From positions 138,629 to 202,628 of the forward strand of contig CAVRWE010000002.1 in the NCBI GenBank assembly GCA_963724895.1: a DNA stretch of 64,000 nucleotides. Direction: 5' to 3'. A model generated the notes under the pieces. That model made no database searches. It was not told the DNA's origin and was given only the letters and a program-made list of their open reading frames with translations. The translations under genes were made by a program, and so were the position numbers. Below, piece by piece: positions 11,014-53,018 of this stretch. Positions within the stretch are counted from its first letter, which is position 1. Each line of letters opens with the position of its first letter. The stretch comes from an uncultured Actinomycetes bacterium (lineage in GTDB: Bacteria; Actinomycetota; Thermoleophilia; Gaiellales; Gaiellaceae).

Positions 11014-11362
11014 TCTCGCCGCTCGGGCCCTGCTTCCACCAGGAGCGCCCGCCCACGGTGCTCGAGACGCAGTAGTCCTCCTGGACCGACCATTCGACGA
11101 CGATGCTCCCGATGCCGGGGCTGTACGTGCTCTTCAGGGTCCCGGCAGTCATGCCCGCGTAGCCGTCGAAGTCTCCGCGGTAGGCCTCGATCGCGGGCAC
11201 GGCGGTGCGGATGTTCGCCTTGGCGGTCGCGTCCGACGCACGCTCGCGGGCCCCGTAGTGGAAGACCGCGGCGATCGAGACGAGCACCGCGATGATGATC
11301 ATCACGACGAGGAGCTCGACCAACGTAAAGCCTTCTTCACTCCGCAGTTCGCTCCGCAGCAT
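10994..11362 (-). CDS. Type IV pilin / pseudopilin with a prepilin-type N-terminal methylation motif
   Basis: MLRSELRSEEG|FTLVELLVVMIIIAVLVSIAAV gives a class III signal peptide with a G/F cleavage site and Glu+5. The 3' end overlaps the selB end by 20 nt in convergent orientation. Confidence 0.85.
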   Translation of the reverse strand: MLRSELRSEEGFTLVELLVVMIIIAVLVSIAAVFHYGARERASDATAKANIRTAVPAIEAYRGDFDGYAGMTAGTLKSTYSPGIGSIVVEWSVQEDYCVSSTVGGRSWWKQGPSGEITMTSC

Positions 11363-11483
11363 TCCCTCACTATCGGAGCGGCGTGGGTGACTTCCTACCC
11401 CACTTTGGGTGAGTCGCTCATCTCCTCTTCGCGGGGCAGTCCCCAGTCCGGCTCGCCGTCGATTCCGGCGCTGCGCCCAGCGG

Positions 11484-12995
11484 CTACCGCGTCTGCGGGA
11501 AGCCGAGGTCGACCCTGCTCGTCTTCGGGTCCGGCCAGCGGCTCGTGACGACCTTCGTCCGCGTGTAGAAGTCGATGCCCTCGGGGCCGTAGATGTGCCG
11601 GTCGCCGAACAACGAGCTCTTCCAGCCGCCGAACGAGTAGTAGGCCACCGGGACGGGGATCGGCACGTTGACCCCCACCATGCCCACGTTCACGTCGAAC
11701 TGGAACTGGCGCGCGACGCCGCCGTCCCGGGTGAAGATCGCGACGCCGTTCCCGTACGGGTTCTCGTTCACGAGGCGGAGCGCCTCGTCGTAGGTCGGCA
11801 CGCGGACGACGGACAGCACCGGTCCGAAGATCTCGTCGCGGTAGGCGTCCATCTCCGGCGTGACGTCGTCGAGCAGGGACACGCCGAGGAAGAAGCCGTC
11901 TCCGTCGGGCGCCGTCTCCCGGCCGTCCGCGACGAGCGTCGCTCCCTGCGCGGGGCCGGAGTCGAGGTACGACGCCACCTTGTCCCGGTGCTGGCGCGTG
12001 ACGAGCGGCCCCATCTCGGCCTCGGGATCCAGGCCGTCGCCGACTTTGACCTTCGGCAGCCGCTCCTTGATCGCCTCCACGAGCGGGTCGGCCGCATCGC
12101 CCACCGCGACCAGCACGGAGACCGCCATGCACCGCTCGCCGGCGGAGCCGTAGCCCGCGCTCACTGCGGCGTCGGCGGCCATGTCGATGTCCGCATCGGG
12201 CAGGACGACCATGTGGTTCTTCGCGCCGCCGAGCGCCTGCACACGCTTCCCGGCCTTCGTGCCGGTCTCGTAGACGTAGCGTGCGATCGGCGTCGAGCCG
12301 ACGAAGCTGACCGCCGCGATGCCGGCGTGCTCGAGGATCCCGTCGACGGCGACCTTGTCGCCCTGGATGACGTTGAAGACGCCGTCCGGCAGGCCGGCCT
12401 CCTTCAGCAGCTCGGCGGTGAGGATCGACGCGGACGGATCCTTCTCCGACGGCTTGAGGATGAACGCGTTCCCGCACGAGATCGCCGGTGCCCACATCCA
12501 CATGGGCACCATCGCCGGGAAGTTGAAGGGTGTGATGCCGGCGACGACGCCGAGCGGCTGGCGGATCGAGTAGACGTCGATGCCGGTCGCCGCCTGCTCC
12601 GAGAACCCGCCCTTGAGGAGCGTCGGGATGCCGCAGACGTACTCGATCACCTCGAGGCCGCGCTGCACCTCGCCGTGCGCGTCGGAGAGCACCTTGCCGT
12701 GCTCGGCGGTGAGGTGGCGCGCGAGGTCGTCGCGGTGGCGGTCGAAGAGGTCGTAGATCCGGAAGAAGAGGTCGGCGCGCTTCGAGAGAGACCACGTTCG
12801 CCACTCCGCGAAGGCCGTCTTGGCCGTCGCGACCGCGCGGTCGATCTCCTCCACGCTCGCGAACGCGACCTCCCCGCTCTGCTCGCCCGTCGCCGGGTTG
12901 TAGACCGGGCCGCTCCGCCCCGACGTCCCCGCGACCGACCCGCCGCCGATCCAGTGCCCGATCACCTTCAGCTCCGTGGTCACCGCTGCGTTCAT
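11484..12995 (-). CDS. mmsA: CoA-acylating methylmalonate-semialdehyde dehydrogenase
   Basis: The start was trimmed to ATG 12995-12993, preceded by GAGGAGG. Aldehyde-dehydrogenase motifs are FNFPAMVPMWMW, ILKPSEKDP and GSAGERCMA (catalytic Cys). The MmsA-type C-terminus reads VNVPIPVPVAYYSFGGWKSSLFGD. Confidence 0.9.
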   Translation of the reverse strand: MNAAVTTELKVIGHWIGGGSVAGTSGRSGPVYNPATGEQSGEVAFASVEEIDRAVATAKTAFAEWRTWSLSKRADLFFRIYDLFDRHRDDLARHLTAEHGKVLSDAHGEVQRGLEVIEYVCGIPTLLKGGFSEQAATGIDVYSIRQPLGVVAGITPFNFPAMVPMWMWAPAISCGNAFILKPSEKDPSASILTAELLKEAGLPDGVFNVIQGDKVAVDGILEHAGIAAVSFVGSTPIARYVYETGTKAGKRVQALGGAKNHMVVLPDADIDMAADAAVSAGYGSAGERCMAVSVLVAVGDAADPLVEAIKERLPKVKVGDGLDPEAEMGPLVTRQHRDKVASYLDSGPAQGATLVADGRETAPDGDGFFLGVSLLDDVTPEMDAYRDEIFGPVLSVVRVPTYDEALRLVNENPYGNGVAIFTRDGGVARQFQFDVNVGMVGVNVPIPVPVAYYSFGGWKSSLFGDRHIYGPEGIDFYTRTKVVTSRWPDPKTSRVDLGFPQTR

Positions 12996-13087
12996 CTCGC
13001 CTCCTCGACCGTTCCGGCCCAGCCTACAAATCAGCGTACCGCGGTGGGCGATCAAGAGCTCGCGCGCTCCGTCCGATAACCGGGCTC

Positions 13088-13342
13088 ATGGACCCGCAAG
13101 GACAGGCAGCCAGCGTCGAGCTCGCACAAATGCGCAAGGAGGAGCGGTCGATCTCCGTGCGCAGGACCCGCCTCCACGCGCGCATCGACTTCCTCCGCGC
13201 CGGTGGTCACGCCGGCGACTCGGGCGAGACGCTCGCCGAGCTCGAGCGCCAGGAGCAGGAGATCTCGCGCCAGCGCCGCGAGCTGCACGAGCGCATCGCC
13301 CGCCTCGAGGCCGAGCTCGCCTCCGGCGGGCGCGCCGCCTGA
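13088..13342 (+). CDS. Small two-helix coiled-coil protein, RsiG-like (tentative)
   Basis: 84 aa. Residues E19-D34 read E-RSI-S-VR-R-TRL-H-ARI-D, and E56-A71 read E-QEI-S-RQ-R-REL-H-ERI-A. These are two copies of an E-X3-S-X2-R-X3-(Q/H)-X3-D-like motif separated by a Gly-rich turn. Confidence 0.5.
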   Translation: MDPQGQAASVELAQMRKEERSISVRRTRLHARIDFLRAGGHAGDSGETLAELERQEQEISRQRRELHERIARLEAELASGGRAA

Positions 13343-13363
13343 GTTCCCGCCTGGAGGCCTAAA

Positions 13364-13456
13364 CGGAGCGGCGCCGGAGTCGAACCGACCGAGCCGTGGG
13401 CTACACGACCGCACTGGTTTTGAAGACCAGCTGGGCCACCGGGCCCATGCCGCTCC
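13364..13456 (-). tRNA. selC: tRNA-Sec (anticodon UCA)
   Basis: The reverse complement is GGAGCGGCATGGGCCCGGTGGCCCAGCTGGTCTTCAAAACCAGTGCGGTCGTGTAGCCCACGGCTCGGTCGGTTCGACTCCGGCGCCGCTCCG. It has an 8-bp acceptor stem (GGAGCGGC/GCCGCTCC), a 6-bp D stem (TGGGCC/GGCCCA) with a 4-nt loop, anticodon loop CTTCAAA, a long extra arm (GGTCGTG/CACGGCT) and a 5-bp T stem. This is the bacterial 8/5 tRNA-Sec architecture. Confidence 0.92.
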
Positions 13457-13557
13457 GCCGCTCAGGCTAGTCAGAGACGCTGGGCGATGCGGGACGTTGG
13501 AGGCCGGAGGGCGAGCGCCTCTTGCCGGGTCTTCGCCGTCGGCGTACGCTCGAACCG

Positions 13558-14907
13558 ATGAGCCGGTCTTGGCTCGCGATCGCGGTTCTGATCGCATGCG
13601 CATCGGGTGCGGCTGCGACGACTGCTCCGGAGGCGACGAGCAGGATCCCGGCGTGCTCGGTCGAGCCGGCTCTGCCCGCCCCGCCGCCGGATCGCGTCGC
13701 GTATGCGCTGCGCGTTCGCCTCAATCGTGGCTTGACGGAAGCTGCCGGATCTCTGCGCGTCTCCTTCCGCCCGGCGGTGGCGACCGATCGTCTCGTGTTT
13801 CGTCTTTGGCCGAACTCACCGTTCTACAGGCAGCAAGGTGCCCGCCTGACGGTGGGCGCCGTCATGGCCGCCGGACAGACGGTGGCGACGAGGCGTCCCG
13901 ATGCGACGACGCTCGTGGTCGACCGTGCAGTGGCCGCGGGTGAAGCGGCGACGGTTGCCATGACCTGGAGTCTGCGTCTGCCGCGGCGCGCCGGGCTCCA
14001 GCTTCGGGGCGGCGGTGGCTCGGCGCGGCTCGTGTCCTTCTTCCCGGTGCTGTCCTGGGACGGCAGCGACTGGACGTCGGACCCAGGGCTCCGTCGCCTC
14101 GACGGATTCTGGTCGACGTCGCCGACCGCCGACTTCGACGTCCGGATCGTTGCGCCGCGCGGCCTTCGGGTACTCGCATCTGGCGCGGAGCTCGGGCGAG
14201 GGCGCTGGCGCGCACGTCGCGTCAGGGACTTCGCAGTCGCGATCGGCGCCTTCACGACACGACGGACGACCGTCCGTCTTCCCCGCCCCGTGCGCGTGCG
14301 TGTGGCAGTCGAGCGCGGGTCCGGCTACACGATGGAGCCCTTCCTCATGGCGACGGTGCGTTCGCTCCGCTCCTACGCCGAGCGGTATGGCGCGTACCCC
14401 TGGCCCACCTACACGCTTGTCGCCATGATCGACTACCTTGGGCTGGCTGGCACCGCCTACCCGACGATCGGGTTCGTCGGCGACGGCAGCGTCGTGCTCA
14501 TCCCCCACGAGACGGCCCATCAGTGGTTCTTAGCGTTGGTCGGAAACAACCAGGCGCGTGATCCGTGGCTGAGCGAGGGGCTTGCGACCTGGGCCCAGAC
14601 GGAACCCGAGGGCTCGCTCAACACCCTGCTCGCGACGGGGATTCCCCCCGAGGTGCGAAACCGCGTCGGCGAGCCGATGAGCTTCTGGGATCGATTCGGC
14701 TTCGAGACGATTCGTCTCGGCGTTTACGTCCAGACCGTCCAGGCGCTTGGCTCCCTAGGGGAGCCGGCCGAAGTCGACTGCGCCCTGCGTCTCTTCGTCG
14801 CTCGAAACGCGTATCGGACAGCGACCCCGCGGGACCTCGCCGCTTCGCTGACGGAGTTCTTCCCGGATGCGGAGCAGAAGCTGAGCGCGTACGGCGCTCG
14901 CTTCTAG
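13558..14907 (+). CDS. Secreted M1-family (gluzincin) metallopeptidase
   Basis: From ATG 13558 the protein starts with the signal peptide MSRSWLAIAVLIACASGAAA. HETAHQWF followed by WLSEGLATW gives HEXXH-X18-E. Confidence 0.8.
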   Translation: MSRSWLAIAVLIACASGAAATTAPEATSRIPACSVEPALPAPPPDRVAYALRVRLNRGLTEAAGSLRVSFRPAVATDRLVFRLWPNSPFYRQQGARLTVGAVMAAGQTVATRRPDATTLVVDRAVAAGEAATVAMTWSLRLPRRAGLQLRGGGGSARLVSFFPVLSWDGSDWTSDPGLRRLDGFWSTSPTADFDVRIVAPRGLRVLASGAELGRGRWRARRVRDFAVAIGAFTTRRTTVRLPRPVRVRVAVERGSGYTMEPFLMATVRSLRSYAERYGAYPWPTYTLVAMIDYLGLAGTAYPTIGFVGDGSVVLIPHETAHQWFLALVGNNQARDPWLSEGLATWAQTEPEGSLNTLLATGIPPEVRNRVGEPMSFWDRFGFETIRLGVYVQTVQALGSLGEPAEVDCALRLFVARNAYRTATPRDLAASLTEFFPDAEQKLSAYGARF

Positions 14908-14928
14908 TCCGCGGTACGCTCACGAGCC

Positions 14929-15690
14929 ATGTCACGCGCTGTGGGCGTCGCAGCCGGCGTGGTCGTCGTCCTCGCCGTCGCCGGCGCTGCGACGTGGTTC
15001 TTCGTGGTTCGCGACACGACCGAGCCGGTCGGTGTCGACGAGGCCGTTACGAGCTTCCGCACGGACACCGAGCCGGGAGCCGGCGAGTCGCCGATACCCG
15101 AGGGCGTCTACGTCTACGACACGAAGGGGCTCGAGCAGACCGACGCGCTCCTCGGCGAGAAGCACGAGTACCCGAAGCAGACGACGATCACCGTGACCGC
15201 CGCAGGCTGCGGGGCGAGCCTCCTCTGGCGGCCGGTGCAGGGCCGGTCGACGCGGTTCGTCGTCTGCACGACGCCGGACGGCTGGGAGCTGCGCACGCAG
15301 GACGAGCGGCACACGTTCTACAGCCAGACGGAGACGACGACCTACCGCTGCGAGGACACGCTCATCCGGCCCGCCGACGAGTCGACCCCCGAGTGGGACG
15401 TGTCCTGCACGACGGGCACGGTCGACGAGGCGGGCACGGGCGAGCTCGTGGGGCGCGAGCGGATCCGTGTGGGCGGGAAAGCAGCGGAAGCCGAGCACGT
15501 GCGCACGGAGGCGACGCTCTCGGGCGAGACGCGGGGGACGACGACGCGCGACCTCTGGTTCGACTCGGAGACAGGCGTCCTCGTGAAGCTCGTGCTGGTG
15601 AGCCACACGGCGACCGACTCGCCGATCGGCGAGGTGCACTACGACGAGGACGTGACGCTCGTCCTGACGTCGCTCGAGCCACGTCGATGA
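14929..15690 (+). CDS. Hypothetical membrane-anchored protein
   Basis: It has an N-terminal TM helix (VAAGVVVVLAVAGAATWFFVV) and a Thr/Cys-containing extracytoplasmic domain. Its stop overlaps the next start (ATGA). No family was recognised. Confidence 0.6.
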   Translation: MSRAVGVAAGVVVVLAVAGAATWFFVVRDTTEPVGVDEAVTSFRTDTEPGAGESPIPEGVYVYDTKGLEQTDALLGEKHEYPKQTTITVTAAGCGASLLWRPVQGRSTRFVVCTTPDGWELRTQDERHTFYSQTETTTYRCEDTLIRPADESTPEWDVSCTTGTVDEAGTGELVGRERIRVGGKAAEAEHVRTEATLSGETRGTTTRDLWFDSETGVLVKLVLVSHTATDSPIGEVHYDEDVTLVLTSLEPRR

Positions 15691-16640
15691 CGCTCTCCGA
15701 GCGGCTTGCCGCTTTGCGCCTCGCGCCGGACGGCGAGCCGCGGCCGGAGGCGCCGCTCGGCCGGGGCCCGCTCGCGGCGCGCGTCCTGCGAGGCGTGATC
15801 GCAGGCTCTTCCGCCCTCGTCGGGCGCGTGCCGGCGAGCGTCGTCCATCCGCTCGCCGGCTTCGGTGGCACGATCGAGTGGGCGGCGCGACCCGCGAAGC
15901 GGCGCCGCCTGGCGACGAACGTCTGTCATGCGCTCGGGCTGCCCAGTGAGCACCCCGACGTTCGCGCGCTCGTCAGGCGCGAGGTGCTGAACGAGGCGCG
16001 GCGCTCGGTCGACTTCCTGTGGGCGCTCGCGAGCCCGGACGAGCTGCTCGCCACGACGCAGGTCGACGGCCGCGAGCACATCCTCGGGGCGCTCGGGCGG
16101 GGAAACGGTGTCCTGCTCGTCTCCACGCACGTCGGCGGCTGGGAGGTGGCGACGGCGCTTCCGAAGGCCGTCGTCCCGGTGGCGACGACGGCGATCGTCA
16201 CCGACGACTGGCTCGCCTGGGCCGTCGAGGGGCTTCGGGCTCGCGCCGGGCTCGGGATCATGTACGACTCCGAGCCGGTGTCGAAGGCGGTCCGACTGCT
16301 TCGCCGCGGCGAGGCCATCCTCGTCCTCGGCGACTACGCGAAGCCGGGGATGCGGACGTACCCGGTCCGCCTGCTCGATGCCGTCGCCGAGCTCCCCGCG
16401 GGGCCGGTGGTGCTCGCGCGCCTGTGCGGCACGCCCATCGTCCCGTTCAGCGTGCTGCCCACCGGCCCGAGGCGGTGGCGGGTCGAGATCGAGTTGCCGC
16501 TCGAGCCACCCGCGCGCAACGGCGGAGCTGAGGCCGAGAGGGCGACGCTCCAGGAGCTCGCCGACCGCTGGAGCCGGACGCTGCGCGAGCATGCGGAGCA
16601 CTGGGCGGCGGTGTACCCGATGGCCTGGCACCCGAAGTGA
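15687..16640 (+). CDS. Lysophospholipid/lipid A-type acyltransferase (LpxL/HtrB-like, PIM-acyltransferase-like)
   Basis: This is the last 317 codons of ORF 14565..16640, starting at ATG 15687 (MTLSERLAAL...). It carries LLVSTHVGGWEV (H-X4-E acyltransferase motif) and ILVLGDYAKPG...PAGPVVLARLCGTPIVP. Confidence 0.75.
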   Translation: MTLSERLAALRLAPDGEPRPEAPLGRGPLAARVLRGVIAGSSALVGRVPASVVHPLAGFGGTIEWAARPAKRRRLATNVCHALGLPSEHPDVRALVRREVLNEARRSVDFLWALASPDELLATTQVDGREHILGALGRGNGVLLVSTHVGGWEVATALPKAVVPVATTAIVTDDWLAWAVEGLRARAGLGIMYDSEPVSKAVRLLRRGEAILVLGDYAKPGMRTYPVRLLDAVAELPAGPVVLARLCGTPIVPFSVLPTGPRRWRVEIELPLEPPARNGGAEAERATLQELADRWSRTLREHAEHWAAVYPMAWHPK

Positions 16641-42026: not shown

Positions 42027-43403
42027 ATGTGCGGCGTCTTCGGCATCCGTTCCGAGGAACGCGACGTCTCCCGGCTCGCGTACTTCGGCCTCTTCGCGCT
42101 CCAACACCGGGGTCAGGAGTCGGCGGGGATCGCGGTCTCCGACAACGGCCGCCTCACCGTCGTCCGGGACATGGGTCTCGTGGCTCAGGTCTTCGACGAG
42201 CAGCAGCTTCAGGCCCTTCCAGGCGTGCTCGCCATCGGGCACACGCGGTACTCGACGACGGGTGCGAACCGCTGGGCCAACGCGCAGCCGCTGATCCACC
42301 ACGGCCGCGCGAGGACGATCGCGCTCGGCCACAACGGCAACCTCGTGAACGTGGAGGAGCTCCGGGCCGAGCTCGTCGCCGAGGGCGTCCGGCTCACCTC
42401 CGGCTCGGACTCCGAGGTGATCGCGGCGCTCATCGCGAGCGATCCCGCTCCTCTCGCCGAGGCAGTCGCGAGCACGATGGCGCGGCTGGAAGGCGCCTAC
42501 TCCGTGACCGCGCTCACGGAGGGCACGCTCGTCGCCTTCCGCGACCCGCTCGGCTTCCGCCCGCTCGAGCTCGGGCGGCTCGGCGACGACTGGGTGGTCG
42601 CGTCGGAGACCTGCGCGCTCGACCTGATCGGAGCCGAGATCGTCCGCGACATCCGACCCGGCGAGATCGTGAGCGTGGATGCCGACGGGCTCCACGCCGC
42701 CCAGGCCGTGCCGGCCGGCCCGAGCGCGCTCTGCATCTTCGAGCACGTCTACTTCGCGCGGCCCGACTCCCAGCTTGCAGGCGTGGAGGTGCACGGCGCC
42801 CGGGTGCGCATGGGCGAGCGGCTGGCGCGCGAGGCGCCGGTGGAAGCGGATCTGGTCATCCCGATCCCCGACTCCGGCACGCCTGCCGCGATCGGGTTCT
42901 CGAAGGCGTCGGGCATCCCGTTCGACGAGGGCTTCGTCAAGAACCGCTACGTCGCGCGGACGTTCATCCAGCCCGACCAGGGGATGCGCGAGCAGGGAAT
43001 CCGGATGAAGTTCAATCCGCTCGACGAGATCGACGGGAAACGGATCGTCGTCGTCGACGACTCGATCGTCCGCGGGAACACGATGCGTCAGCTCGTCGCG
43101 ATGCTCGTCGATGCCGGCGCCGCCGAGGTGCACGTGCGCATCTCCTCGCCGCCCGTCGTCTCGCCGTGCTTCTACGGGATCGACATGGCCGACGAGGACG
43201 AGCTCGCGGCGGCCCACCGGTCGGTGGAGGAGATGCGCGAGCTCGTCGGCGCGACGTCGCTCCACTATCTCTCGGTCGAGGGGATGCAGGAGGCGACGAC
43301 GCTGCCGGAGGACGCCGTCTGCCGCGCCTGCTTCACGCGCGCCTACCCGACGCGCGTGCCCGAGAGGGCTGCGAAGCTCCGCTTCGAGCCCGCAACGGCG
43401 TAA
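42027..43403 (+). CDS. purF: Amidophosphoribosyltransferase
   Basis: The product starts MCGVFGI (Ntn Cys after Met) and carries LQHRGQESAGI, GHTRYST, the PRTase loop VVVDDSIVRGNT, and FeS Cys residues near the C-terminus. Confidence 0.95.
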   Translation: MCGVFGIRSEERDVSRLAYFGLFALQHRGQESAGIAVSDNGRLTVVRDMGLVAQVFDEQQLQALPGVLAIGHTRYSTTGANRWANAQPLIHHGRARTIALGHNGNLVNVEELRAELVAEGVRLTSGSDSEVIAALIASDPAPLAEAVASTMARLEGAYSVTALTEGTLVAFRDPLGFRPLELGRLGDDWVVASETCALDLIGAEIVRDIRPGEIVSVDADGLHAAQAVPAGPSALCIFEHVYFARPDSQLAGVEVHGARVRMGERLAREAPVEADLVIPIPDSGTPAAIGFSKASGIPFDEGFVKNRYVARTFIQPDQGMREQGIRMKFNPLDEIDGKRIVVVDDSIVRGNTMRQLVAMLVDAGAAEVHVRISSPPVVSPCFYGIDMADEDELAAAHRSVEEMRELVGATSLHYLSVEGMQEATTLPEDAVCRACFTRAYPTRVPERAAKLRFEPATA

Positions 43404-45739
43404 GACGCCGCAGCACGGCCTCTGGCCGGCGCAGCACACGCGCGATCAGAACCTCGAGCGCTCGCTGGCCGCGAACCGGCCCACGGGCGCTGATCCAGAT
43501 GGCGACCGGCTCGGGCAAGACGTTCACCGCGGCGAACGTCGCCTACCGGCTCATCAAGCACGGCGACGCGCGCCGGATCCTCTTCCTCGTCGACCGCGCG
43601 AACCTCGGCCGGCAGACGCTCAAGCGAGTTCCAGGGCTTCACGACGCCCGGACGACGGCCGCAAGTTCACCGAGCTCTACAACGTCCAGCACCTCTCCTC
43701 GAACCGGATCGACCCGGTCGCGCGCGTCACGATCTCGACGATCCAGCGGCTCTACTCGATCCTCCGCGGCGATGCCGAGCTCGACCCGGAGCTCGACGAG
43801 CACTCGGCGTACGAGCTCGACCGACCGAGCCCGTGCCGGTCGAGTACAACGCGCGACGTCCCGCCGGAGACGTTCGACGTCGTGATCGTCGACGAGTGCC
43901 ACCGCTCGATCTACGGCGTCTGGCGGCAGGTGCTCGACTACTTCGACGCGTTCACGATCGGGCTGACCGCGACGCCGAACAAGCAGACGTTCGGCTTCTT
44001 CGACCAGAACCTCGTCATGGAGTACACCCACGAGCAGGCGGTCGCCGACCAGCGTCAACGTCGACTTCGACGTCTACCGCATCCGGACCGAGATCACCGA
44101 GCAGCGGCTCGACGATCGACGCCGGGCACTCGTGACCGAGTTCCGCGACCGCCAGACGCGCGCGCATCGCGCTGGGAGCAGCTCGACGACGACCTCGCCT
44201 ACACCGCGAGCCGAGCTCGACCGCGCGGTCGTCGCGCGCGACCAGATCCGCACGGTGCTGCGAGACCTTCCGCGACCGCCTGTTCACCGAGATCTTCCCC
44301 GGCCGCACGCGAGGTGCCGAAGACGCTGATCTTCGCCAAGGACGACGCGCACGCCGACGACATCGTCCAGCATCGTGCGCGAGGTCTTCGGCAAGGGCAA
44401 CGACTTCGCGGTGAAGATCACCTACAAGGCCGACCGGCGCGGAAGACCGACGAGCTGATCGCGGCGTTCCGCAACTCGCTACAACCCGCGGATCGCGGTG
44501 ACCGTCGACATGATCGCCACCGGCACCGACGTGAAGCCGCTCGAGTGCGTCTTCTTCATGCGCGCGGTGAAGAGCCGGACGTACTTCGAGCAGATGAAGG
44601 GCCGCGGCGTCCGCGTGATCGACCGACGCCGACTTCCAGGCGGTCGACGCCCGACGCCGACGGCGAAGGACCGCTTCGTGATCGTCGACGCGGTCGGCGT
44701 CACCGAGAGCGAGCTCGTCGACACGCGTCGCCGCTCGACCGCAAGCCGACGGTGGCGCTCGAGAGGCTGCTGCGGCAGGTCTCCTATCGGCGTGCGCGAC
44801 GCCGGACGTCGATCTCGGCGATCGCCGTCGCGCCTCGCGCGGCTCGACCGCCGGCTCTCACCGACGACGCAGCGCGCCGAGCTCGAGGCGCTCGCCGGCG
44901 GGGCAGACGCTCCGCGAGATCGCCGGCGGCATGGTCGACGCGCTCGACCCCGACCGCCAGCTCGCCGCCGCGCTGCGAGGCGACGCGGCACGGAGGAGCC
45001 CGTGCGGTGGACGCGATCGCCGACGCGCCGCGCGCACGCTCCTCGACGCAGCAGTCGCGCCGCTCGCGCACGAGCCCCGAGCTGCGCGAGCGGCTCGTCG
45101 AGCTCCGCCGCACGCCACGAGCAGGCGATCGACGAGATCTCGGCCGACGAAGGTGCTCGAGGCCGGCTACTCGAAGGAGGCCGCCGACCGCGCGCGCTCG
45201 ACCGTCGAGTCCTGGGAGCTGTTCTGTCGAGGAGCAACCGCGACGAGATCACGGCGCTCCAGGTCCTCTACTCCCGCCGTACGCCGAGCGGCTGACGTTC
45301 GCGCGAGGTGAAAGAGCTCGTCGCAGGCGATCGAGACGCCGCCGCACGGCTGGACGCCCGAGCGGCTCTGGCAGGCGTACGAGGCGCTCGACCGCTCGAC
45401 GCGTGCGCGGCTCCGGGCAGCGTGTGCTCACCGACCTCGTCTCGCTCGTCCGCGTCGCGCTGCACGCAGGACGACGAGCTCGTGCCGTACCCCGAGCTCG
45501 TCCGCGAGCGCTTCCACGCCTGGCTCCTCGCAGCAGGAGAACGCGGGACGAGATGTTCACGCCCGAGCAGCTCGCCTGGCTCGAGGATCCGCGACCACGT
45601 CGCGGCCTCGCTCGGGATCACGGTGGACGACTTCGGCTACACGCCGTTCGTCGAGGACGGCGGGCTCGGCAAGGCCGAGGTGTTCGGCGACGACCTCGGG
45701 CCGCTACTCGACGAGCTCAACGAGGTGCTCGTCGCGTGA
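43404..45739 (+). pseudogene. hsdR: Type I restriction enzyme HsdR (EcoEI-R-type C-terminus), 5'-truncated and heavily frameshifted
   Basis: It is readable only by frame-hopping. Recognisable pieces are RALIQMATGSGKTFTAANVAYRLIKHGDARRILFLVDRANLGRQTLK | EFQGFTTP | DDGRKFTELYNVQ..., FDVVIVDECHRSIYG, TIGLTATPNKQTF, EVPKTLIFAKDDAHADDIVQ and MIATGTDVKPLECVFFMRAVKSRTYFEQMKGRGVR. The tail reads ...FTPEQLAWLE | IRDHVAASLGITVDDFGYTPFVEDGGLGKAEVFGDDLGPLLDELNEVLVA*. There is no start codon or nuclease domain; readable sequence starts right after the purF TAA. Confidence 0.85.
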
Positions 45740-46081
45740 GCGAGCTGCCGCTTGGGTGGCCGAAGGTCGGCGAGGTCGGCCAGGTCTGCACAGAACCGCG
45801 CCGACGACGAGGTCGAACGCGTCCCTACCTCCGGAACAAGAGACATCGACGTCGGAGATCGGGGAGCGACGGTGGAGCGCGAGATCGCTCAAGCAGCCGA
45901 GCTCGTTGGGCGACCGCGGACGAGGCGAGCTTGGGTCTTGCAGAATCCCTGACAGATTCGTCCCTACGACGGTCACGAGCCATTTCCTTTACCTCTTTCT
46001 CCACCATCGCGCCGAAGCGCGGGAAACACGCGCTCTCATCGAATCGGTTCTCGTCCGTCGAGTTCCCGGTGCCGCCGCTGA

Positions 46082-46101
46082 ACGAGCAGCGGCGGATCGT
46101 G
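46082..46101 (+). repeat. 20-nt direct repeat, copy 1 (HsdS conserved region)
   Basis: ACGAGCAGCGGCGGATCGTG is identical at 46082-46101 and 46707-46726. Confidence 0.9.
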
Positions 46102-46706
46102 GCGGCGATCGAGGAGCACCTCTCGCCGCCTCGACGCCGCCGATGCATCGCTACGACAGGCGCGCTGCGCCGCGCTGCGACACGCTCGAGGCGTGTCGCA
46201 GGCACTGAGCCATTGCGACGGCAACTGGCCGACCAGACAGCTGGCGGAGAGTCAAGTGGTCCGAGCGGCCGATTCGACTACGGAATGCTGATCGTCAGAA
46301 GGGCACATCGATCGATGCGAGGTGCTCTACGTCCGGGTGCGTGACTACCCGCGCGACATCATTGAGCTGGACGGTCTCGAGCAACGTCGAAGGTGATCGC
46401 GCGAAGTACAACCGCGATCGCACGCTTCTGGCGAATGACGCTGCTTCATGGCGATTCGATCGGAACGTACGGGCCGAGTTGCGATCGTCGGCCGCGCGGA
46501 ACTCGATGGTGGTGAATATCACCCAAGATCACCGTCCGGATCGCGCCGCTGACCGCGAGTTCGATAACCGCGAGTTCGTCGCGTAGCCTGCGAAGCGACG
46601 CTCGCGCAGCGTTACTTACGCCGGGTCGCGCGTGGTGTCAGCCGTGACAGGGAGTCAATATCGGCGATCTTCGGACTGATGCCGCTGCCACGTGCCAGCC
46701 GCTCGC

Positions 46707-46726
46707 ACGAGCAGCGGCGGATCGTG
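46707..46726 (+). repeat. 20-nt direct repeat, copy 2 (HsdS conserved region)
   Basis: Identical to 46082-46101. Both copies encode the (N/H)EQRRIV segment. Confidence 0.9.
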
Positions 46727-47060
46727 CGCGGAGGTCGAGGAGCGGCTGTCGCGGATCGACGCGATGCGGGCGTCGATCGAGCGCGCGCAGCACCGCTCGC
46801 AAGGCTCTGCGCGCCGCGATCCTCGAGCGTGCCTTCCGCGGCGAGCTCGTCCCGCAGGACCCGTCCGACGAGCCCGCCGAGGCCCTCCTCGCCCGCATCC
46901 GCGCCGAGCGAACGGACACTCGAACGGTCACCAGAAGGGGCAAGTAAGAAAACACGCTGCATTCAAGCCACTTTCACGGTTGGAGTTAGGGACACACTCG
47001 CTGTCGCGGAGAGCGCGCAACGTTGTGTATACGTCAGCAACCGTTGATACTCTGGCATAC

Positions 47061-47669
47061 GTGGCTCGGACATCGTCACCGTTCTTGCTCCCCCTGTTTC
47101 GCTCGCAAGCGCAGGCTCGGCTGCTCGCCCGGATCTACCTCGAGGACCGACCGGCGCCGCTTGCGGACATCGCAGCCGAGCTCGACCTCGATCGCGGCGG
47201 GCGTGAAGCGTGAGGTGGATCGGCTCGAGCAGGCCGGACTCGTAGCGACGCGATCGCGTGGGCCGCCAACGCCTCGTTCGGCCGAACCGCGGACTCTCCG
47301 TACTACGACGATCTCCTCGGGCTCGCTGATGACAGCCGTTCGGCCCGGCAGCAGTCGTCGGCGCCCGCGCTCGCCGACATCGACCGGCGTCGAGCGCGCG
47401 TATCTGTTCGGATCCTGGGCGGCGCGATACACCGGTGAGCAGGGCGTACGCGCCAGACGACGTCGACGTCCTCATCGTCGGAACGCCCGACAGAACGTCG
47501 AGGTGTACGCGATGCAGCCACGCGCGCTGTCGGACGATCTTGCATCGGCGAGGTGAATCCGACGATCGTCGTCTCGCGAATCGCTGGGACGCGCTCGGAG
47601 CGAGGGCTTCATCCGCGACGTGAACGAACGCGCCACTGATCGCGCTCGACCTCGACCGCGGACGCGTGA
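47061..47669 (+). pseudogene. Winged-helix (ArsR/MarR-like) + nucleotidyltransferase (MNT-like) protein, frameshifted
   Basis: Pieces lie in different frames: VARTSSPFLLPLFRSQAQARLLARIYLEDRPAPLADIAAELDLDRGG | REVDRLEQAGLV | GVERAYLFGSWAARYTGEQG | DDVDVLIVGTPDR | EVNPTIVVS.... The end coordinate is approximate. Confidence 0.6.
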
Positions 47670-48115
47670 CTCGCGCCGACGTCGAGCAGAACTCGTCGCT
47701 GACGGGACGCTAAGGCGTACCACGTCCGACGACGAGGCGCGCCACGCGCGAGCTCGTGACGGTCGCATCAGCAGCACATCGCGAGCTCGCCGTGCTCGAT
47801 CGCAGACGTGGACTCGGCGGGTGCGCTCGTGCGTCGCATACGACGCAGCTCGCAAGGCGATCGAGGCGCACATGCGAAGCGAGGGACTCGGGTTGCGAAG
47901 CGGCGAAGGTGGTCACGCGAAGCTCGGCGAAGTACGCTGTCGCGGCCTTCGGGGACTCGCCCGCCGTCGAGAGCTTCCGCGATGTTCGACCGCGTTCGTC
48001 GCCTTCGCAACAGCGTCGCAGTACGACGCGTTCTCGGTCGAGGATGCCGACGTCGTGTTCGCGCTCGAGCAGGCCGAGGCTATCGTCGCGGCTGTGGAAG
48101 CGGATCTCTCGATGA
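47666..48115 (+). pseudogene. HEPN-domain partner protein, frameshifted
   Basis: Pieces are VTRADVEQ | ELVADGTLRR | AYDAARKAIEAHMRSEGLGLRSGEGGHAKLGE | YAVAAFGDSPAVESFRD | RRLRNSV | QYDAFSVEDADVVFALEQAEAIVAAVEADLS. An ATGA junction with hsdM lies at 48112-48115. Boundaries are approximate. Confidence 0.55.
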
Positions 48116-49580
48116 GCGCGCAGAACGGCCTCGTCCAGCGGCTCTGGAACTACTGCAACGTCCTGCGCGACGACGGGCTCTCGTACGGCGACTACGTCGA
48201 GCAGCTCACGTACCTGCTCTTCCTGAAGATGGCGGACGAGCAGACGAAGCCGCCGTTCTCGCGGCCGGCGATCGTGCCCGAGGGGCTCGACTGGCCGTCG
48301 CTCGCTCGCGCGCGACGGCGACGAGCTCGAGGCGCACTACCGCCACGTCCTGAGCGAGCTCGGGCAGCAGCCCGGGATGCTCGGCGTCATCTTCCGCAAG
48401 GCGCAGAACCGGATCCAGGACCCGGCGAAGCTGCGGCGGCTGATCGTCGACCTGATCGACCGCGAGACCTGGCTGACGCTCGACGCGGACGTGAAGGGCG
48501 ACGCCTACGAGGGCCTGCTCGAGAAGAACGCCGAGGACATGAAGTCGGGGCGGGCCAGTACTTCACGCCGCGGCCGCTGATCAAGGCGATCGTCGAGGTG
48601 CATGCAGCCCGAGCCGGGGATGACGATCTGCGACCCGGCCTGCGGCACCGGCGGCTTCCTGCTCGCCGCGTACGAGTACGATCGCGCGGCCAGCGGGATG
48701 CTCGACCCCGACCAGAAGAAGCTCCTGCGCGACGACGCGTTGCGCGGCTGGGAGATCGTCGACAACACCGCGCGGCTCTGCGCGATGAACCTGTTCCTGC
48801 ACGGGATCGGCTCGCGAGGACGCGCGACGAGCCCGATCGCGGTCGACGACGCGCTCGCAGGCCGACCCGGGCACGCGCTTCGACATGGTGCTGACGAATC
48901 CGCCGTTCGGGAAGAAGTCGTGCGATGACGATCGTCAACGACGAGGGCGAGGCCGAGCGGGAGAGACCTCGTCGTCGTCGCGCGACGACTTCTGGGCGAC
49001 GACGTCGAACAAGCAGCTCAACTTCGTGCAGCACGTGAAGACGCTGCTGAAGATCGGCGGCCGGCGCGGTGGTCGTGCCGGACAACGTGCTGTTCGAGGG
49101 CGGCGCCGGCGAGACGGTCCGCCGGAAGCTGCTCGCACGAGTGCGACGTGCACACGCTGCTGCGCCTGCCGACCGGCGATCTTCTACGCGCAGGGCGTGA
49201 AGGCGAACGTCATCTTCTTCGACCGCAAGCCCGCGTCGGAGGCAGCGGCAACGCGCGAGCTCTGGGTCTACGACCTGCGCACGAACCAGCACTTCACGCT
49301 GAAGCAGAACCCGCTGCGCTACGAGCACCTCGACGACTTCGTCGCGTGCTTCGCCGCGCGGGAGGAGACCGAGCGGTTCAAGCGGTTCACGTACGAGCGA
49401 GCTGCTCGCGCGCGACAAGGTCATCCTCGACATCGTCTGGCTGCGCGACGAGTCGCTCGAGGACCTCGAGAACCTCCCGCCGCCGGACGTCATCGCGCGG
49501 AGATCGTCGAGGATCTCGAGGCCGCGCTCGCCGAGTTCTCCGCTGTCGCCGAGTCGCTCGGCGAACCGGCCGAGAGCTGA
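48112..49580 (+). pseudogene. hsdM: Type I R-M DNA methyltransferase HsdM (N6-adenine), heavily frameshifted
   Basis: All the following are present but in changing frames (about a dozen shifts by my manual reading): MSAQNGLVQRLWNYCNVLRDDGLSYGDYVEQLTYLLFLKMADEQ (HsdM N-domain), AGQYFTPRPLIKAIVEV, ICDPACGTGGFLLAAYEY (SAM motif I), FDMVLTNPPFGKK (motif IV) and IFYAQGVKANVIFFDRKP. Confidence 0.85.
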
Positions 49581-49601
49581 GCGCCGTCTACACTCGACGG
49601 A

Positions 49602-50105
49602 GTGGACGAAGCTCTGGCGGCCGCAGTGATCCTCGGCTGGCCGCTCGCGTTCGGCTATCTCGTCTGGCGCTTCCAGCGCATGCCCGGAGAGCTCTCGGAT
49701 CGGGAGGAGGAGCGACTCCTGGCGGAGTTCAGCGAACAGCAGGAGCGCGAGCGGCTGCTCTCGCTCACGAGCGACACGGGATGGCGCGTGCCGTACGCGG
49801 ACGCGGTGTCGCTCGAGGGGGAGCGCTGGTGGACGACGCGGTGGCGGACCGGGTCCACGCTCCTGGTCGTCCAGGAGAACGGAGTGTTCGACCGGTACTG
49901 GTGCGCATACGAGCTGTGCAGGCTGGAGCCACGCCTGATTGCGGCGCTCCCGATGTCCGAGTACCGCTCAGCAGAGGAGCTCCTGGCGGACGTGCCCTCC
50001 ATCTACTCCCCCAAGGTCGACTCGCTCGCCCGGTGGACCCAGGTGCCGGCCTACGTCGGGCGCTCGCTGGCCGCGACGGCCGCGTGGGTCGGCCGCAACG
50101 CATAG
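49602..50105 (+). CDS. Hypothetical protein with an N-terminal TM segment (167 aa), intact
   Basis: It starts at GTG 22 nt after the hsdM stop. The product reads AAAVILGWPLAFGYLVWRF, then a charged helix (SDREEERLLAEFSEQQERERLL), then a Trp-rich domain. No family was recognised. Confidence 0.5.
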   Translation: MDEALAAAVILGWPLAFGYLVWRFQRMPGELSDREEERLLAEFSEQQERERLLSLTSDTGWRVPYADAVSLEGERWWTTRWRTGSTLLVVQENGVFDRYWCAYELCRLEPRLIAALPMSEYRSAEELLADVPSIYSPKVDSLARWTQVPAYVGRSLAATAAWVGRNA

Positions 50106-50897
50106 CTACGAGCGCCGCGGCGGAAGCGGGAACGAACGACGCTCGTCGTGCGCTGGTACTCGGCGTAGTCGGCTCGCGAGCGGAGCGCCTGCGCCTCGGT
50201 CGCCGGGATTCCGGTCACGCGGAAGAGGAGGAAGAGGAGAACCGCGGGCACGAGCCACGACACCCACCCCGACGGCGCAGCGGTGGCGACGAGCGCGACG
50301 CCGCACCACGTCACCCACTCGAAGAAGTAGTTCGGGTGGCGCGACCAGCCCCAGAGGCCCGAGCGGGCAGTCCGTCGCTGATTCCCGGGATCCGCGCGCC
50401 AGCGGGCGAGCTGGCGGTCGGCGACGATCGTGCCCGCGTTGCCGATCGCCCACACGGCGATCCCGAGCCACTCGAGTACCCCGATGCCGCCGGCCGGGTC
50501 GAGGGCGATGAGCGCGAACGGCAGCGAGAAGAGGACCACGGCGAGCGCCTGGAGCTGGAAGAACCAGAAGAAGTTCCGGTTCGCAGCTCGTCCCCACTTC
50601 GTGCGGAGAGCCCGATACCGCCCGTCTTCCTCCTTCCCCAGCACCCGGTCGAAGAAGAGGTAGGTACCGAGGCGGAACCCCCAGATCGACGCGAGCAGCG
50701 GCGGCGAGGAGGCGCTGGCCGTCGTCGCCGTCCGCGAGTAGCGCATACGCGATGGCGGCGCAGGCGATCAGCACGGCCCACGCGACGTCGACGAAGCTCG
50801 CGTCGCGAATCCGGACCTGGACGACCCAGAGCGCGGCCATGACGACCGACGCGAGCAGCGCGCCGACGAGGAGGAGGCCCCAGACCGAGCCGATCAC
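50106..50897 (-). pseudogene. DUF1295 / steroid-5-alpha-reductase-like (ICMT-fold) membrane protein with 1-2 frameshifts
   Basis: The N-terminus starts at GTG 50897 and overlaps the MMPL stop (GTGA): VIGSVWGLLLVGALLASVVMAALWVVQVRIRDASFVDVAWAVLIACAAIAYALLADGDDGQRL. The middle part is in ORF 50051..50746: LLASIWGFRLGTYLFFDRVLGKEEDGRYRALRTKWG...GLWGWSRHPNYFFEW...AEYQRTTS. The likely true end FPLPPRRS* is in the first frame again. Shifts lie near 50700 and 50135. Confidence 0.7.
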
Positions 50898-53018
50898 GCC
50901 GCTCCTTCCGGGGAACGAGCGGCCGCGACCGGCGTCTGAACGGGGCGCTCGCGGCGCGAGAGCGCGGAGGGCCACCAGGTCCGCTCGCCGAGGGAGAACG
51001 TGAGCGCCGGTACGAGGATCGAGCGCACGACGAACGTGTCGAGGAGGACGCCGAGCGCGACCGTGATCCCGATCTGGGTCAGCGCGACCAGCGGCAGGAC
51101 GGCGAGCACCGAGAACGTGCCGGCGAGGACGATCCCCGCGGACGTGATGACGCCTCCGGTGACCGCGAGCCCCTTCAGCATCGCGTCCTTCGTGGGCAGC
51201 ACCTGCGCCTCCTCGCGGACGCGCGCCATGAGGAAGATGTTGTAGTCGATCCCCAGCGCCACGAGGAAGATGAACGCGAACAGCGGGTAGCTCGGATCCT
51301 CGCCCGGGAAGTCGGCGAAGAGCTCGAACACGACGAGGCTCAGTCCGAGTGCCGCGAAGAACGAGATGCACGACAGTGGCCATGAGCATCACCGGCCCGA
51401 GGATCGCTCGCAGCAGCACGACGAGGATCGCGAAGACGACGAGGAGCACGAGCGGGACGAGGAAGAGGGTGTCGCTCCGCACGGCCGCGCGGAGGTCGTG
51501 CTCCTCGGCCGTCGCGCCGCCCACGAGCACGGCGTCACCGCCGGCCGCCCTCAACTGCTCGCGCAGCGGATCGACGAGCGCGAACCCCTCCTGGCCGAAG
51601 GGGTCCTCGGCGAGCGTGACGGTGAACAGCGCGCCGGGCGGGCCGGTCTCCGCCCGGCCGACGGCGACGACCTCGGGTGCCGCCCGGGCAGCCGCGACCA
51701 CCGCCTCGAGCCGGCCCGGATCGGTCACGATCACGGTCGTCGGTGCGCTCGCGCCGGTGGGGAACGAGCGCTCGAGCAGCCTCTGCCCCTCGACGGCCTC
51801 GACGTCGCCGCGGAACGCGTTCGCCGTCGTGAGGCTCGTATCGAGGCTCAGCGTCCCCAGCGCGATCGCCAGCAGCGCGAGAGTCGTCACGACCCAGACG
51901 CCGCGATGCCGCCGTTCGATCCACGCGCCGAGCCGTCCCCAGAAGCCGCGGCGCCAGGCCGTGCCGTTCTCGGCGCCCTCCTCACCTTCGAAGCGCGGGA
52001 CGAACGGCCAGAACGCTCGCCTCCCGCCGATCAGGAGAAGCGCGGGCAGGACCGTGAGCATCGCCGTCGCCGCGACCGCCACGCCCATCGCGCCGACCGG
52101 GCCGAGACCCGCGATCGAGTTCACCGACGCCAGCGAGAGGCAGAGGAGCGCTGCGACGACGGTGCCGGCCGACGCGAGGATCCCTGGGCCCGCCCGGCGG
52201 ACCGCGATCCGCATCGCCTCGTGCTTGTCCTCGTGCCTGTGGAGCTCCTCGCGGTAGCGAGCCGTGAGCAGGAGCGCGTAGTTCGTCCCCGCGCCGAACA
52301 CGAGCACGAGCAGGATGCCGCCCGTCTGTCCGTTGACGACGACTCCCGCGTCGACGAGGAGCGATCCGAGCCCGCGCACGAGGGCCTCTGCGAAGAAGAC
52401 GGCGAGGAGCGGAAGGACCCAGAAGATGGGGCTGCGGTAGATGAGCACGAGGAGGACGAAGACGAGCGCCGCGGTGGTGAACAGCAGGGTCGAGTTGATG
52501 CCCTCGAAGGCCTTGCTCGCGTCGGCCGAGTATCCCGCCGCGCCCGTGACCTTCGCCTCGAGCCCGTCCCCGGACGCGGCGGAGACGGTCTCGCGGACGG
52601 ACTCGACCGCCTCGATCAGGACCTCCTCCTCACCCTCGGCGACGATCTGCGCCACCACGAGCGCGGCGTTCCCGTCCTCTGAGTACTGCGGCGGGCTCAC
52701 CTCGACCACGCCCTCAGGCGGAGAGCCGGCGAGCTCCGCGCGTGCCTCCGCGATCGCCTCGCGATCCCCTGCGGTCAGGCCGTCCGTGCGCGCGAACACC
52801 GCGATCGCGGCGACACCCTCCGCGGACGGGAACTGGTCTGCGAGCTCGAGCGCCCGGACGGACTCCGCGTCCTCGGGCAGGAAGCTCGACGGCTCGTTCT
52901 GCTGCTTCGACTCGAACTGGCCGATCAGCGGGCCGAGCGCGACGAGCGCGGCGAGCCAGACGCCGAGCACGACGAGCTTCGATCGGCGTCCGGAGACGAG
53001 ACCGGCGATGAGGTTCAC
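50894..53018 (-). pseudogene. MMPL (RND-superfamily) transporter with one frameshift
   Basis: About 550 aa from GTG 53018 are intact (MNLIAGLVSGRRSKLVVLGVWLAALVALG...LRAILGPVMLMATVV). The sequence then continues one frame over: ISFFAALGLSLVVFELFADFPGEDPSYPLFAFIFLVALGIDYNIFLMARVREE.... The shift is near 51368. Confidence 0.8.

Follow-up and report, generated by a model that had tools for sequence, protein, structure and literature searches.

Insertion-dominated frameshifts without decay in a type I restriction-modification operon of a Gaiellales bacterium: a probable consensus artefact

An EcoAI/EcoEI-like operon in the purine gene cluster

The window analysed here (64,000 nucleotides from a contig of an uncultured member of the Gaiellaceae) contains, between positions 43404 and 49580, the genes hsdR, hsdS, a winged-HTH (wHTH)/nucleotidyltransferase-like gene, a HEPN-like gene and hsdM, none of which can be read without a switch of frame every ~60 nt. 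A Viterbi segmentation by GC3 phase resolved the flanks into frame segments of gene length, and 43403-49600 into segments of only 36-400 nt. Together these genes make up an ordinary type I (EcoAI/EcoEI-like) restriction-modification (R-M) operon in the order hsdR-hsdS-[wHTH/NTase-like + HEPN-like pair]-hsdM, and the gene identifications of a first-pass annotation were borne out overall by alignments and profile matches. In this Gaiellales lineage the operon occupies the purF-purM interval of the purine gene cluster. The relatives vary in the presence or absence of the R-M segment after purF, and remnants are found at the same position in two of them (hsdR without hsdM in L003, and hsdS interrupted by IS elements in L002).

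The preceding gene, purF (amidophosphoribosyltransferase; 42027-43403, forward strand), is complete and free of frameshifts. It shares 85-88% identity with Gaiellales relatives over residues 1-458, and its C-terminus and native stop codon (TAA, 43401-43403) are at the conserved position. Homology to hsdR (43404-45739, forward strand) starts with the very next nucleotide. Protein-guided, frameshift-aware alignment against an intact orthologue (P0136, residues ~160-928) begins at about residue 160, leaving hsdR with no start codon and with the first ~160 codons missing. No counterpart of the N-terminal PD-(D/E)xK nuclease region (...ADYLLF...VEAKK, residues ~55-78 of P0136) was found in this alignment, because the purF stop directly precedes the hsdR homology; the earlier description of an hsdR lacking both start codon and nuclease domain directly after the purF TAA is accurate. 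At this junction ~4 kb could genuinely have been deleted, or the join could be chimeric. Over the aligned part, at 81% identity, the insertions in hsdR number 26 of one base and 8 of two bases, with a single deletion. An additional -1/+1 pair at ~45272/45304 clears the sole apparent stop, which brings the total to ~37 shifts (about 35 insertions and 2 deletions) with no in-frame stops. All shifts previously resolved by hand were reproduced (43625, 43647, ~43819-43832 and 43854), and the accompanying estimate of roughly two dozen for the whole gene proved too low. The stitched HsdR matches the Pfam families ResIII (1.4e-34), SWI2_SNF2 (1.6e-22), Helicase_C and EcoEI_R_C, as well as the NCBIfam models PRK11448 and EcoAI, both far under their equivalog cut-offs. 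It contains the SF2 helicase/translocase motifs MATGSGKT, DECHRS and LTATP expected of a type I subunit.

The hsdS gene (45736-46947, forward strand; GTG start, TAA stop at 46945-46947) shares with the hsdR stop a GTGA overlap at 45736-45739, which we confirmed in the sequence, and contains several frameshifts. Its central and C-terminal parts are recognisably conserved and can be aligned with the HsdS proteins of L001 and L002; both target-recognition domains are divergent and, because of the frameshifts, unreadable. The match to Methylase_S is weak and under the cut-off. The gene has an internal direct repeat (46069-46137/46692-46762). A search of the window for inverted hsdS copies and for a second copy of the locus, the latter proposed for the whole assembly in the first-pass annotation, found neither.

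The two small genes that follow had been read as a wHTH-nucleotidyltransferase/HEPN pair. The wHTH assignment of the upstream gene (47061-47707, forward strand; ~200 codons, with homologues of 190-200 aa) stands, with a MarR_2 match of 29.1 bits, above the cut-off. Its nucleotidyltransferase part is suggested by the motif LFGSWAARY...DVDVLIVG (GS...DxD), which is conserved with the homologues, and by a Polbeta match at E=0.15; a profile search of these homologues found no NTase family. Aligned to P0374 (63% identity), the gene shows 13 one-base and 2 two-base insertions. The frameshifted downstream gene (47708-48111, forward strand, ends approximate), a likely partner of the wHTH gene, gave in a hand-stitched reading a weak, sub-cut-off HEPN match (PF05168, E=1.3e-3, 19.3 bits where the cut-off is 22, profile positions 16-115/117). 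The pair resembles the MNT/HEPN toxin-antitoxin pairs of defence loci in being a small two-gene module, placed here between hsdS and hsdM, with an NTase-like GS...DxD motif in the first gene and a HEPN-like profile match in the second. It differs from them in the N-terminal winged HTH of the first gene and in an NTase part below Pfam threshold and a HEPN match below cut-off, both scored on frameshifted sequence.

The last gene, hsdM (48112-49580, forward strand), encodes the N6-adenine methyltransferase subunit and is 89% identical to the intact P0255 (P0256 served likewise as an intact reference). The alignment shows 9 insertions against 3 deletions, and no stop falls in frame. These 12 shifts agree with the earlier count of about a dozen. 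At the nucleotide level it is 90.5% identical to the intact hsdM of L083. The stitched protein has both domains expected of a type I modification subunit (N6_Mtase, 3.8e-62; HsdM_N, 7.5e-12), and the motifs QYFTPRP, CDPACGTGGF and NPPFGKK were recovered along with those of HsdR, so that every motif listed in the first-pass annotation is present in the stitched reading.

Taken together, the locus resembles type IB (EcoAI/EcoEI-like) systems in the SF2 helicase motifs and EcoEI_R_C domain of HsdR, the HsdM_N and N6_Mtase domains of HsdM, the two conserved regions of HsdS, and the overlapping stops and starts; intact orthologues in relatives measure 928-930, 438 and 484 aa. Unlike in such systems, all genes are out of frame as assembled, hsdR is without ~160 N-terminal residues including the nuclease motif region, and the wHTH/NTase-like and HEPN-like pair intervenes between hsdS and hsdM. 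As deposited, all three subunit genes are frameshifted, leaving no ORFs able to yield the subunits, a condition that we attribute to the assembly (see below).

Frameshift spectrum and absence of decay

The overall count came to about 80 frameshifts, with a balance of about 67 insertions to 5 deletions. By region, the insertions comprise 26 one-base and 8 two-base events in hsdR (plus one from the -1/+1 pair), 9 in hsdM, 15 in the wHTH gene, 4 in the right flank and 4 elsewhere. The shifts fall mostly outside homopolymers: when the single-base insertions were pooled (n=79), only 21 were compatible with a homopolymer, against a null of 0.51-0.54 (p=1e-5). In 55 of the same 79 (70%), one of the inserted base and the third-codon base before it is G and the other C, against a null of 0.32 (p=9e-12). 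As a control, random insertions simulated and passed through the same aligner gave 0.31 for G/C pairing and 0.49 for homopolymer compatibility. The inserted base matches an allele that an orthologue has at that third position in 23 of 33 events in the window, versus 38% of control codons (p=4e-4), and in 10 of 13 events in L083 (p=0.01); in L001 the enrichment was not significant (12 of 24 vs 42%). At three sites both amino-acid alleles stand in tandem (S/A at 48922, E/H at 49136 and V/I at 49179). No simple-sequence tracts were found at the shift sites. The insertion bias and this G/C "both alleles" signature, which are absent from the first-pass annotation, are the most diagnostic features of the locus.

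The indels are accompanied neither by in-frame stops (0 in ~1250 codons) nor by raised dN/dS, as would be expected of a genuine pseudogene. HsdR and HsdM retain 81-89% amino acid identity to their orthologues, and dN/dS is 0.22-0.36 (0.24-0.36 for hsdR), versus 0.13-0.31 for pairs of other orthologues, intact or not. The proposal of indels without substitutional decay was thus upheld by frameshift-aware alignment, which revealed no load typical of an old pseudogene. Bacterial pseudogenes reportedly have a deletional bias (attributed to Mira, Ochman and Moran, 2001), so deletions would be expected at least to equal insertions, the opposite of what is seen.

Similar insertions on the contig and in related assemblies

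The lesions had been thought confined to ~6 kb. The locus is indeed by far the densest, with ~10-13 shifts per kb inside it, ~2 per kb in the 1.8 kb that follow and ~0.07 per kb in the remaining sequence, but confinement in the strict sense does not hold. Immediately downstream lies an intact ORF, orf167 (49602-50105, forward strand), with a strong GC3 signal, for which neither a family nor relatives were detected. It is followed on the reverse strand by a gene for a DUF1295/steroid-reductase-like membrane protein (50051-50899) with three +1 insertions (50699, 50140 and 50130), and by an MMPL/RND-type transporter gene (50894-53018) with a single one at 51368. The former has an intact relative, P0132 (268 aa), in the same cluster at >=90% identity (89% by alignment), and the latter an intact relative, P0130, that reads across the break. 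Further +1 insertions at ~4224, ~4940, ~16812 and ~19885 affect methylmalonyl-CoA mutase (twice), PAP2-like and MBOAT genes.

The closest relatives are long-read metagenome-assembled genomes (MAGs) of the Microflora Danica (MFD) project. Two Nanopore-only contigs show the same type of error at the R-M locus: L001 (hsdR with 16 one-base and 1 two-base insertions vs 3 deletions; hsdM with 10 one-base insertions) and L083 (hsdR with 14 one-base and 1 two-base insertions vs 1 deletion; hsdM intact). Shift positions vary from contig to contig. Housekeeping genes of sister assemblies are also affected, with +1 insertions in purL of the Nanopore-only MFD MAGs L005 (2) and L010 (3). The effect is not universal, as L002, another long-read contig from that project series, has an intact hsdR. 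Short-read assemblies are free of the errors or nearly so: at the R-M locus L006 has 0 shifts and L003 has 1, and purL and purF are clean in the short-read relatives. A JGI contig carries all three genes intact (hsdR 930, hsdS 438 and hsdM 484 aa). The short-read contigs L006 and L011 end within the R-M segment.

The MFD pipeline combines Flye (--meta --nano-hq) with a single Medaka round and does not polish with short reads; its authors name microdiversity as an issue (PMC12313526). Judging by the relatives and the error profile, the deposited consensus is most probably that of a metagenome assembly made with Flye and Medaka from Nanopore reads alone. Documented frameshift errors of such assemblies (fragmented gene calls of the IDEEL type) are similar in that single-base indels break the calls while the protein is otherwise conserved (PMC9262707, PMC12313526), and in that short-read assemblies are free of them. 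Nanopore consensus indels are, however, mainly homopolymeric (PMC9262707), whereas here the insertions lie outside homopolymers, bear the G/C third-codon signature and cluster in a variable locus. This difference favours a collapse of allelic variants over miscalled homopolymers, and it also means that the exact error mode is one that we infer rather than a documented one.

Origin of the frameshifts and what they mean

We conclude, with a probability of about 0.8, that the frameshifts are a consensus artefact, most likely of divergent alleles collapsed in the Flye/Medaka consensus, and not mutations of the organism. Reads of at least two divergent versions of the locus, from co-existing strains or from paralogous or horizontally shared R-M copies, would have been piled onto one contig. 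Wherever these versions disagree, which is chiefly at G/C third-codon positions, both alleles would be written into the consensus in tandem, creating a +1 insertion. Co-assembled versions that are nearly identical, as presumed for purF and purL, would collapse cleanly and yield no errors, which would explain why the errors crowd into the variable R-M segment and thin out across the right flank. Of the three explanations originally offered, the evidence favours the one that invokes errors of a long-read metagenome consensus in a region that varies among strains or is repeated. Allele mixing by itself does not explain the sharp left edge exactly at the purF stop.

An artefact of another kind, in which an R-M segment of a minor strain was covered by few Nanopore reads and retained raw-read noise, is clearly less probable but deserves consideration. 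The variable presence of the segment among relatives, the two short-read contigs ending inside it and the sparse +1 insertions across the whole contig are all compatible with locally low coverage, and signs of sequencing error have been tied to low-coverage MAGs (PMC12313526). Random noise, on the other hand, should yield many deletions and homopolymer indels, and not a homopolymer-depleted set of ~67 insertions vs 5 deletions in which G/C alternative bases and orthologue alleles are over-represented.

Both biological explanations previously entertained are disfavoured by the ~67 insertions against 5 deletions, the lack of stops, the unchanged dN/dS, and the occurrence of the same errors in housekeeping genes of the contig and in other Nanopore-only MAGs, the short-read relatives being intact. 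A genuine R-M system turned into true pseudogenes by recent and repeated inactivation would fit the missing nuclease-encoding 5' part of hsdR and the remnants in L003 and L002; it is nevertheless very unlikely, given that about 80 frameshifts have left no stop codon, that dN/dS is not distinguishable from that of intact pairs, that the insertion bias runs opposite to the deletional bias reported for bacterial pseudogenes, and that the same lesions affect methylmalonyl-CoA mutase, MMPL and MBOAT genes here and purL of related long-read MAGs. Even more improbable, to the point of being nearly negligible, is a local biological process adding single bases, such as targeted hypermutation or phase variation. 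A density 100-fold over the rest of the window and the recurrence of such shifts at this locus on two further contigs would speak for it; the positions, however, differ by contig, events of this type are also found beyond the locus, purL of other MAGs included, and they are seen in long-read assemblies only. Phase-variable type I systems likewise have frames switched off by indels, but they do so by slippage at a single repeat tract in hsdM or hsdS, or by inversion of hsdS cassettes; the ~80 scattered non-repeat insertions here involve neither element.

Since the breaks resemble long-read consensus errors and not decay, the finding is mainly a warning about data quality. In Nanopore-only MAGs, variable loci such as R-M systems may carry about 1% spurious +1 insertions beside clean-looking core genes, and pseudogene counts, defence-system censuses and gene-decay inferences drawn from such catalogues may therefore be badly biased at the very loci under study. 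A candidate cheap, read-free flag for collapsed-variant errors would combine a large excess of insertions over deletions, non-homopolymer context and an extra base that is the G/C alternative to the third-codon base before it with zero stop codons and normal dN/dS. The biological import is small: the operon is a standard type I R-M system, and the lineage is common in soil. It is highly improbable that the frameshifts are real, wholly or in large part, by a lineage-specific addition of single G/C bases that silences Gaiellales type I R-M genes without substitutional decay. A more modest reading, likewise given a low probability, takes the junction between the purF stop and hsdR as real, in which case a nuclease-less HsdR remnant and a predicted working methyltransferase would have been retained inside the purine operon.

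Reading of the R-M locus across its frameshifts

A GC3-phase Viterbi segmentation, run over the 64 kb (G+C content ~70%) to find frame changes, gave segments of gene length over most of the window and of just 36-400 nt within 43403-49600. This segmentation and alignments with a purpose-written frameshift-tolerant protein-to-DNA aligner, for which intact orthologues retrieved with stitched queries (frames joined across the shifts) served as references, confirmed, for the sequence as deposited, the claim of the first-pass annotation that the type I R-M locus (43404-49580) is readable only through repeated frame changes. All of the catalytic motifs quoted there were found, and the four shifts resolved by hand were recovered by the alignment; the "two dozen" shifts estimated for hsdR turned out to be about 37.

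The hsdR gene (43404-45739) aligned at 81% identity to residues ~160-928 of an intact HsdR (P0136, 928 aa) once 26 insertions of one base, 8 of two bases and one deletion were allowed for. Its sole apparent in-frame stop, at 45293, was removed by a -1/+1 pair at ~45272/45304, reading ...ERLTFAREVKEL... The best HsdR match by bit score (P0134, an 885-aa NCBI MAG protein) was dropped as a reference because ~300 of its residues are duplicated in tandem within it, with VDGVNVDFDVYRIRTEITERGSTIDAG... present twice; the MAG is probably misassembled there. The hsdM gene (48112-49580) matched two intact 484-aa references (P0255/P0256) over their whole length (89% identity); 9 insertions and 3 deletions were needed, and there was no stop. 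As predicted, hsdS begins at the GTG of a GTGA that it shares with the hsdR stop, and it runs to 46947; its central and C-terminal conserved regions are clear and its recognition domains divergent and unreadable.

Pfam and NCBIfam searches of the 45.7-48.1 kb region on raw frames or on the first codon-usage stitch gave nothing, or a weak Methylase_S match, and the region became readable with homologues from a full-library search. A gene of ~200 codons at 47061-47707 (homologues 190-200 aa), which required ~15 insertions to be accounted for, encodes an N-terminal winged HTH (MarR_2, above cut-off) and a nucleotidyltransferase-like motif, LFGS...DVD. It is followed, before hsdM, by a HEPN-like gene (PF05168, E=1.3e-3, below cut-off). 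The short spacer that separates the wHTH gene from the hsdS stop codon (46948-47060) is comparatively A+T-rich and is a possible candidate for an internal promoter of the wHTH/HEPN pair and hsdM. The locus is a system of an already-known kind, and no second copy of it was found within the window.

Overall, the frameshift-aware comparison with intact orthologues proposed in the first-pass annotation yielded insertions and deletions in a ratio of about 67 : 5 and no in-frame stops in ~1250 codons. The dN/dS values of the stitched genes versus orthologues were 0.24-0.36 for hsdR and 0.22-0.34 for hsdM, as compared with 0.13-0.31 for other orthologous loci taken pairwise and 0.20-0.31 for fully intact sequences. 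Real indels in such numbers (~80) would normally bring hundreds of unconstrained substitutions and also show a bias toward deletions, as is reported for bacterial pseudogenes (Mira, Ochman & Moran 2001).

Signature of the insertions and their occurrence elsewhere

The inserted bases were characterized in a pooled set of 79 single-base insertions, drawn from the window together with two related contigs. A G-with-C pairing of the inserted base and the preceding third-codon base was seen in 55/79 (expectation 0.32; p=9e-12), and just 21/79 could be homopolymer extensions (expectation 0.51-0.54; p=1e-5). When 240 random insertions were placed in an intact orthologue and processed by the same aligner, the respective fractions were 0.31 and 0.49, and the signature is therefore not made by the method. 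In the window the inserted base equalled an allele carried by an orthologue at that third position in 23/33 cases versus 38% of control codons (p=4e-4); the same held for contig L083 (10/13, p=0.01), and the value for contig L001 (12/24) was not significant. Three events appeared as tandem amino-acid alleles in the nucleotide alignment to intact hsdM: T|G at 48922 (Ser/Ala), G|C at 49136 (Glu/His) and G|A at 49179 (Val/Ile). Only the tests of base identity, homopolymer context and orthologue allele were retained. A codon-slot classification that assigned 68% of events to "third-position tandems" was discarded as uninformative, the random-insertion simulation giving 67%, and a fine-scale mosaic test against two orthologue clades (51 A, 76 B, 47 switches) provided no evidence, because any independent third lineage would give the same picture.

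The first-pass annotation had confined the damage to ~6 kb. The density indeed peaks in the locus (roughly 10-13 events/kb, ~2/kb in the following 1.8 kb and ~0.07/kb elsewhere), but the same +1 events occur in neighbouring and distant genes. Relative to intact relatives from the same >=90% identity clusters, +1 insertions are found in the DUF1295 gene (50699, 50140 and 50130) and in the MMPL transporter gene (51368). Farther away, single +1 insertions break the methylmalonyl-CoA mutase gene twice (~4224 and ~4940, minus strand) and occur once each in the genes for a PAP2-like membrane protein (~16812, plus strand) and an MBOAT acyltransferase (~19885, minus strand), all matching in type the errors of the R-M locus. 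Further suspicious Viterbi boundaries, in rpsF-ssb-rpsR-rplI, at purS and in purM-purN-purH, were normal gene junctions.

Between hsdM and DUF1295 lies an intact, strongly coding-looking ORF, orf167 (49602-50105, plus strand). No Pfam or NCBIfam family matches it, the syntenic relatives lack it, and its use as a probe for near-identical short-read versions in JGI metagenome contigs turned up no relatives. The window also carries a tRNA-Leu (718-802, minus strand) and a tRNA-Sec (13364-13456, minus strand; anticodon TCA, Rfam 68 bits), the latter adjoining a ~1 kb stretch (13340-14307) that is non-coding by the GC3 model.

Related assemblies and the purF/hsdR junction

PurF of the window shares 85-88% identity with the PurF proteins of Gaiellales/Gaiellaceae MAGs; many of these come from the long-read Microflora Danica (MFD) set and have contigs named in the style of Flye. 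MFD assemblies are built from Nanopore reads only (Flye --meta --nano-hq, then one round of Medaka), and the MFD authors discuss microdiversity and checks for sequencing errors (PMC12313526). In relatives the same R-M operon sits between purF and purM, in the order purF, small ORFs, a cyclase-like gene on the opposite strand (1055-1058 aa), hsdR, hsdS, small genes, hsdM, DUF1295, ctaG, purM, purN, purH. A JGI short-read contig has intact hsdR (930 aa), hsdS (438 aa) and hsdM (484 aa), and the short-read hsdR genes of L006 and L003 contain 0 and 1 shifts. The window-like pattern recurs at other positions in two Nanopore-style contigs of the ERZ250395xx series: L001 (hsdR with 16 one-base and 1 two-base insertions vs 3 deletions; hsdM with 10 insertions) and L083 (hsdR with 14 one-base and 1 two-base insertions vs 1 deletion; hsdM intact). 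In a third contig, L002, hsdR is intact; there (11027-15461) a truncated hsdS (239 aa) and then IS/transposase genes come after it, hsdM is absent, and the locus is an R-M remnant broken up by mobile elements. In L083, from a long-read MAG, the gene calls merge ctaG and DUF1295 into a single 545-aa product and break up purH (11475-13112 and 14711-16235), probably through more consensus frameshifts. Even the essential gene purL carries insertions of the same kind in MFD MAGs (2 in L005 and 3 in L010, e.g. GTC g ACG, CTC g TCG), and none were found in full-length purL of the short-read L006 and L011 or of L014, whose assembly type is uncertain.

Homology to hsdR starts at 43404, right behind the conserved purF stop, and about 160 codons, including the nuclease motif region, are missing. 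The purF-hsdR spacing in relatives is ~380-560 nt or ~4 kb, and the relatives diverge from one another from the first base past the purF stop, which therefore marks a core/variable sequence boundary. A real deletion variant and a chimeric join in the assembly graph would both fit the junction. No microhomology was found at it, and when JGI metagenome contigs were scanned with an exact 23-mer for a second instance, there were 0 matches. Across L003-L013, L083 and the JGI 3300056388 contig, the site holds an hsdRSM operon in some, hsdR alone in others and none in others. In Gaiellales, this site immediately behind the purF stop is a hotspot of variation.

Origin of the frameshifts

Consensus errors are the best explanation of the frameshifts; this was one of the options raised in the first-pass annotation, and it is favoured by the insertion bias, the base signature, the absence of decay, and the events in other genes and MAGs. 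As to how they arose, we infer that the locus, being variable and possibly shared horizontally, may have been present as divergent alleles that collapsed onto one contig, the consensus then putting down one allele after the other wherever many of the variants differ. Such a mechanism would account for the excess of insertions, the G/C signature at third positions and the enrichment for orthologue alleles, and likewise for the conserved protein sequence, the clustering in the R-M segment and the fading into the right flank.

Consensus errors arising from low coverage alone are a weaker alternative, since they would be predicted to be homopolymer and deletion errors. Nanopore frameshifts in earlier work were mainly homopolymer-derived (PMC9262707), whereas those of the window are not homopolymer-centred. 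Genuine decay into pseudogenes and a biological process that inserts bases are both very unlikely in view of the bias toward insertions, the lack of stops, the normal dN/dS, the hits in housekeeping genes and the intact short-read relatives. The identity of flanking residues (0.70 beside events vs 0.82 overall) does not discriminate between the competing models.

The "indel-only" breakage is thus most probably no feature of the organism. The R-M locus is useful as a warning on long-read MAGs, and its insertion signature is a possible read-free diagnostic of collapsed-variant errors in them.
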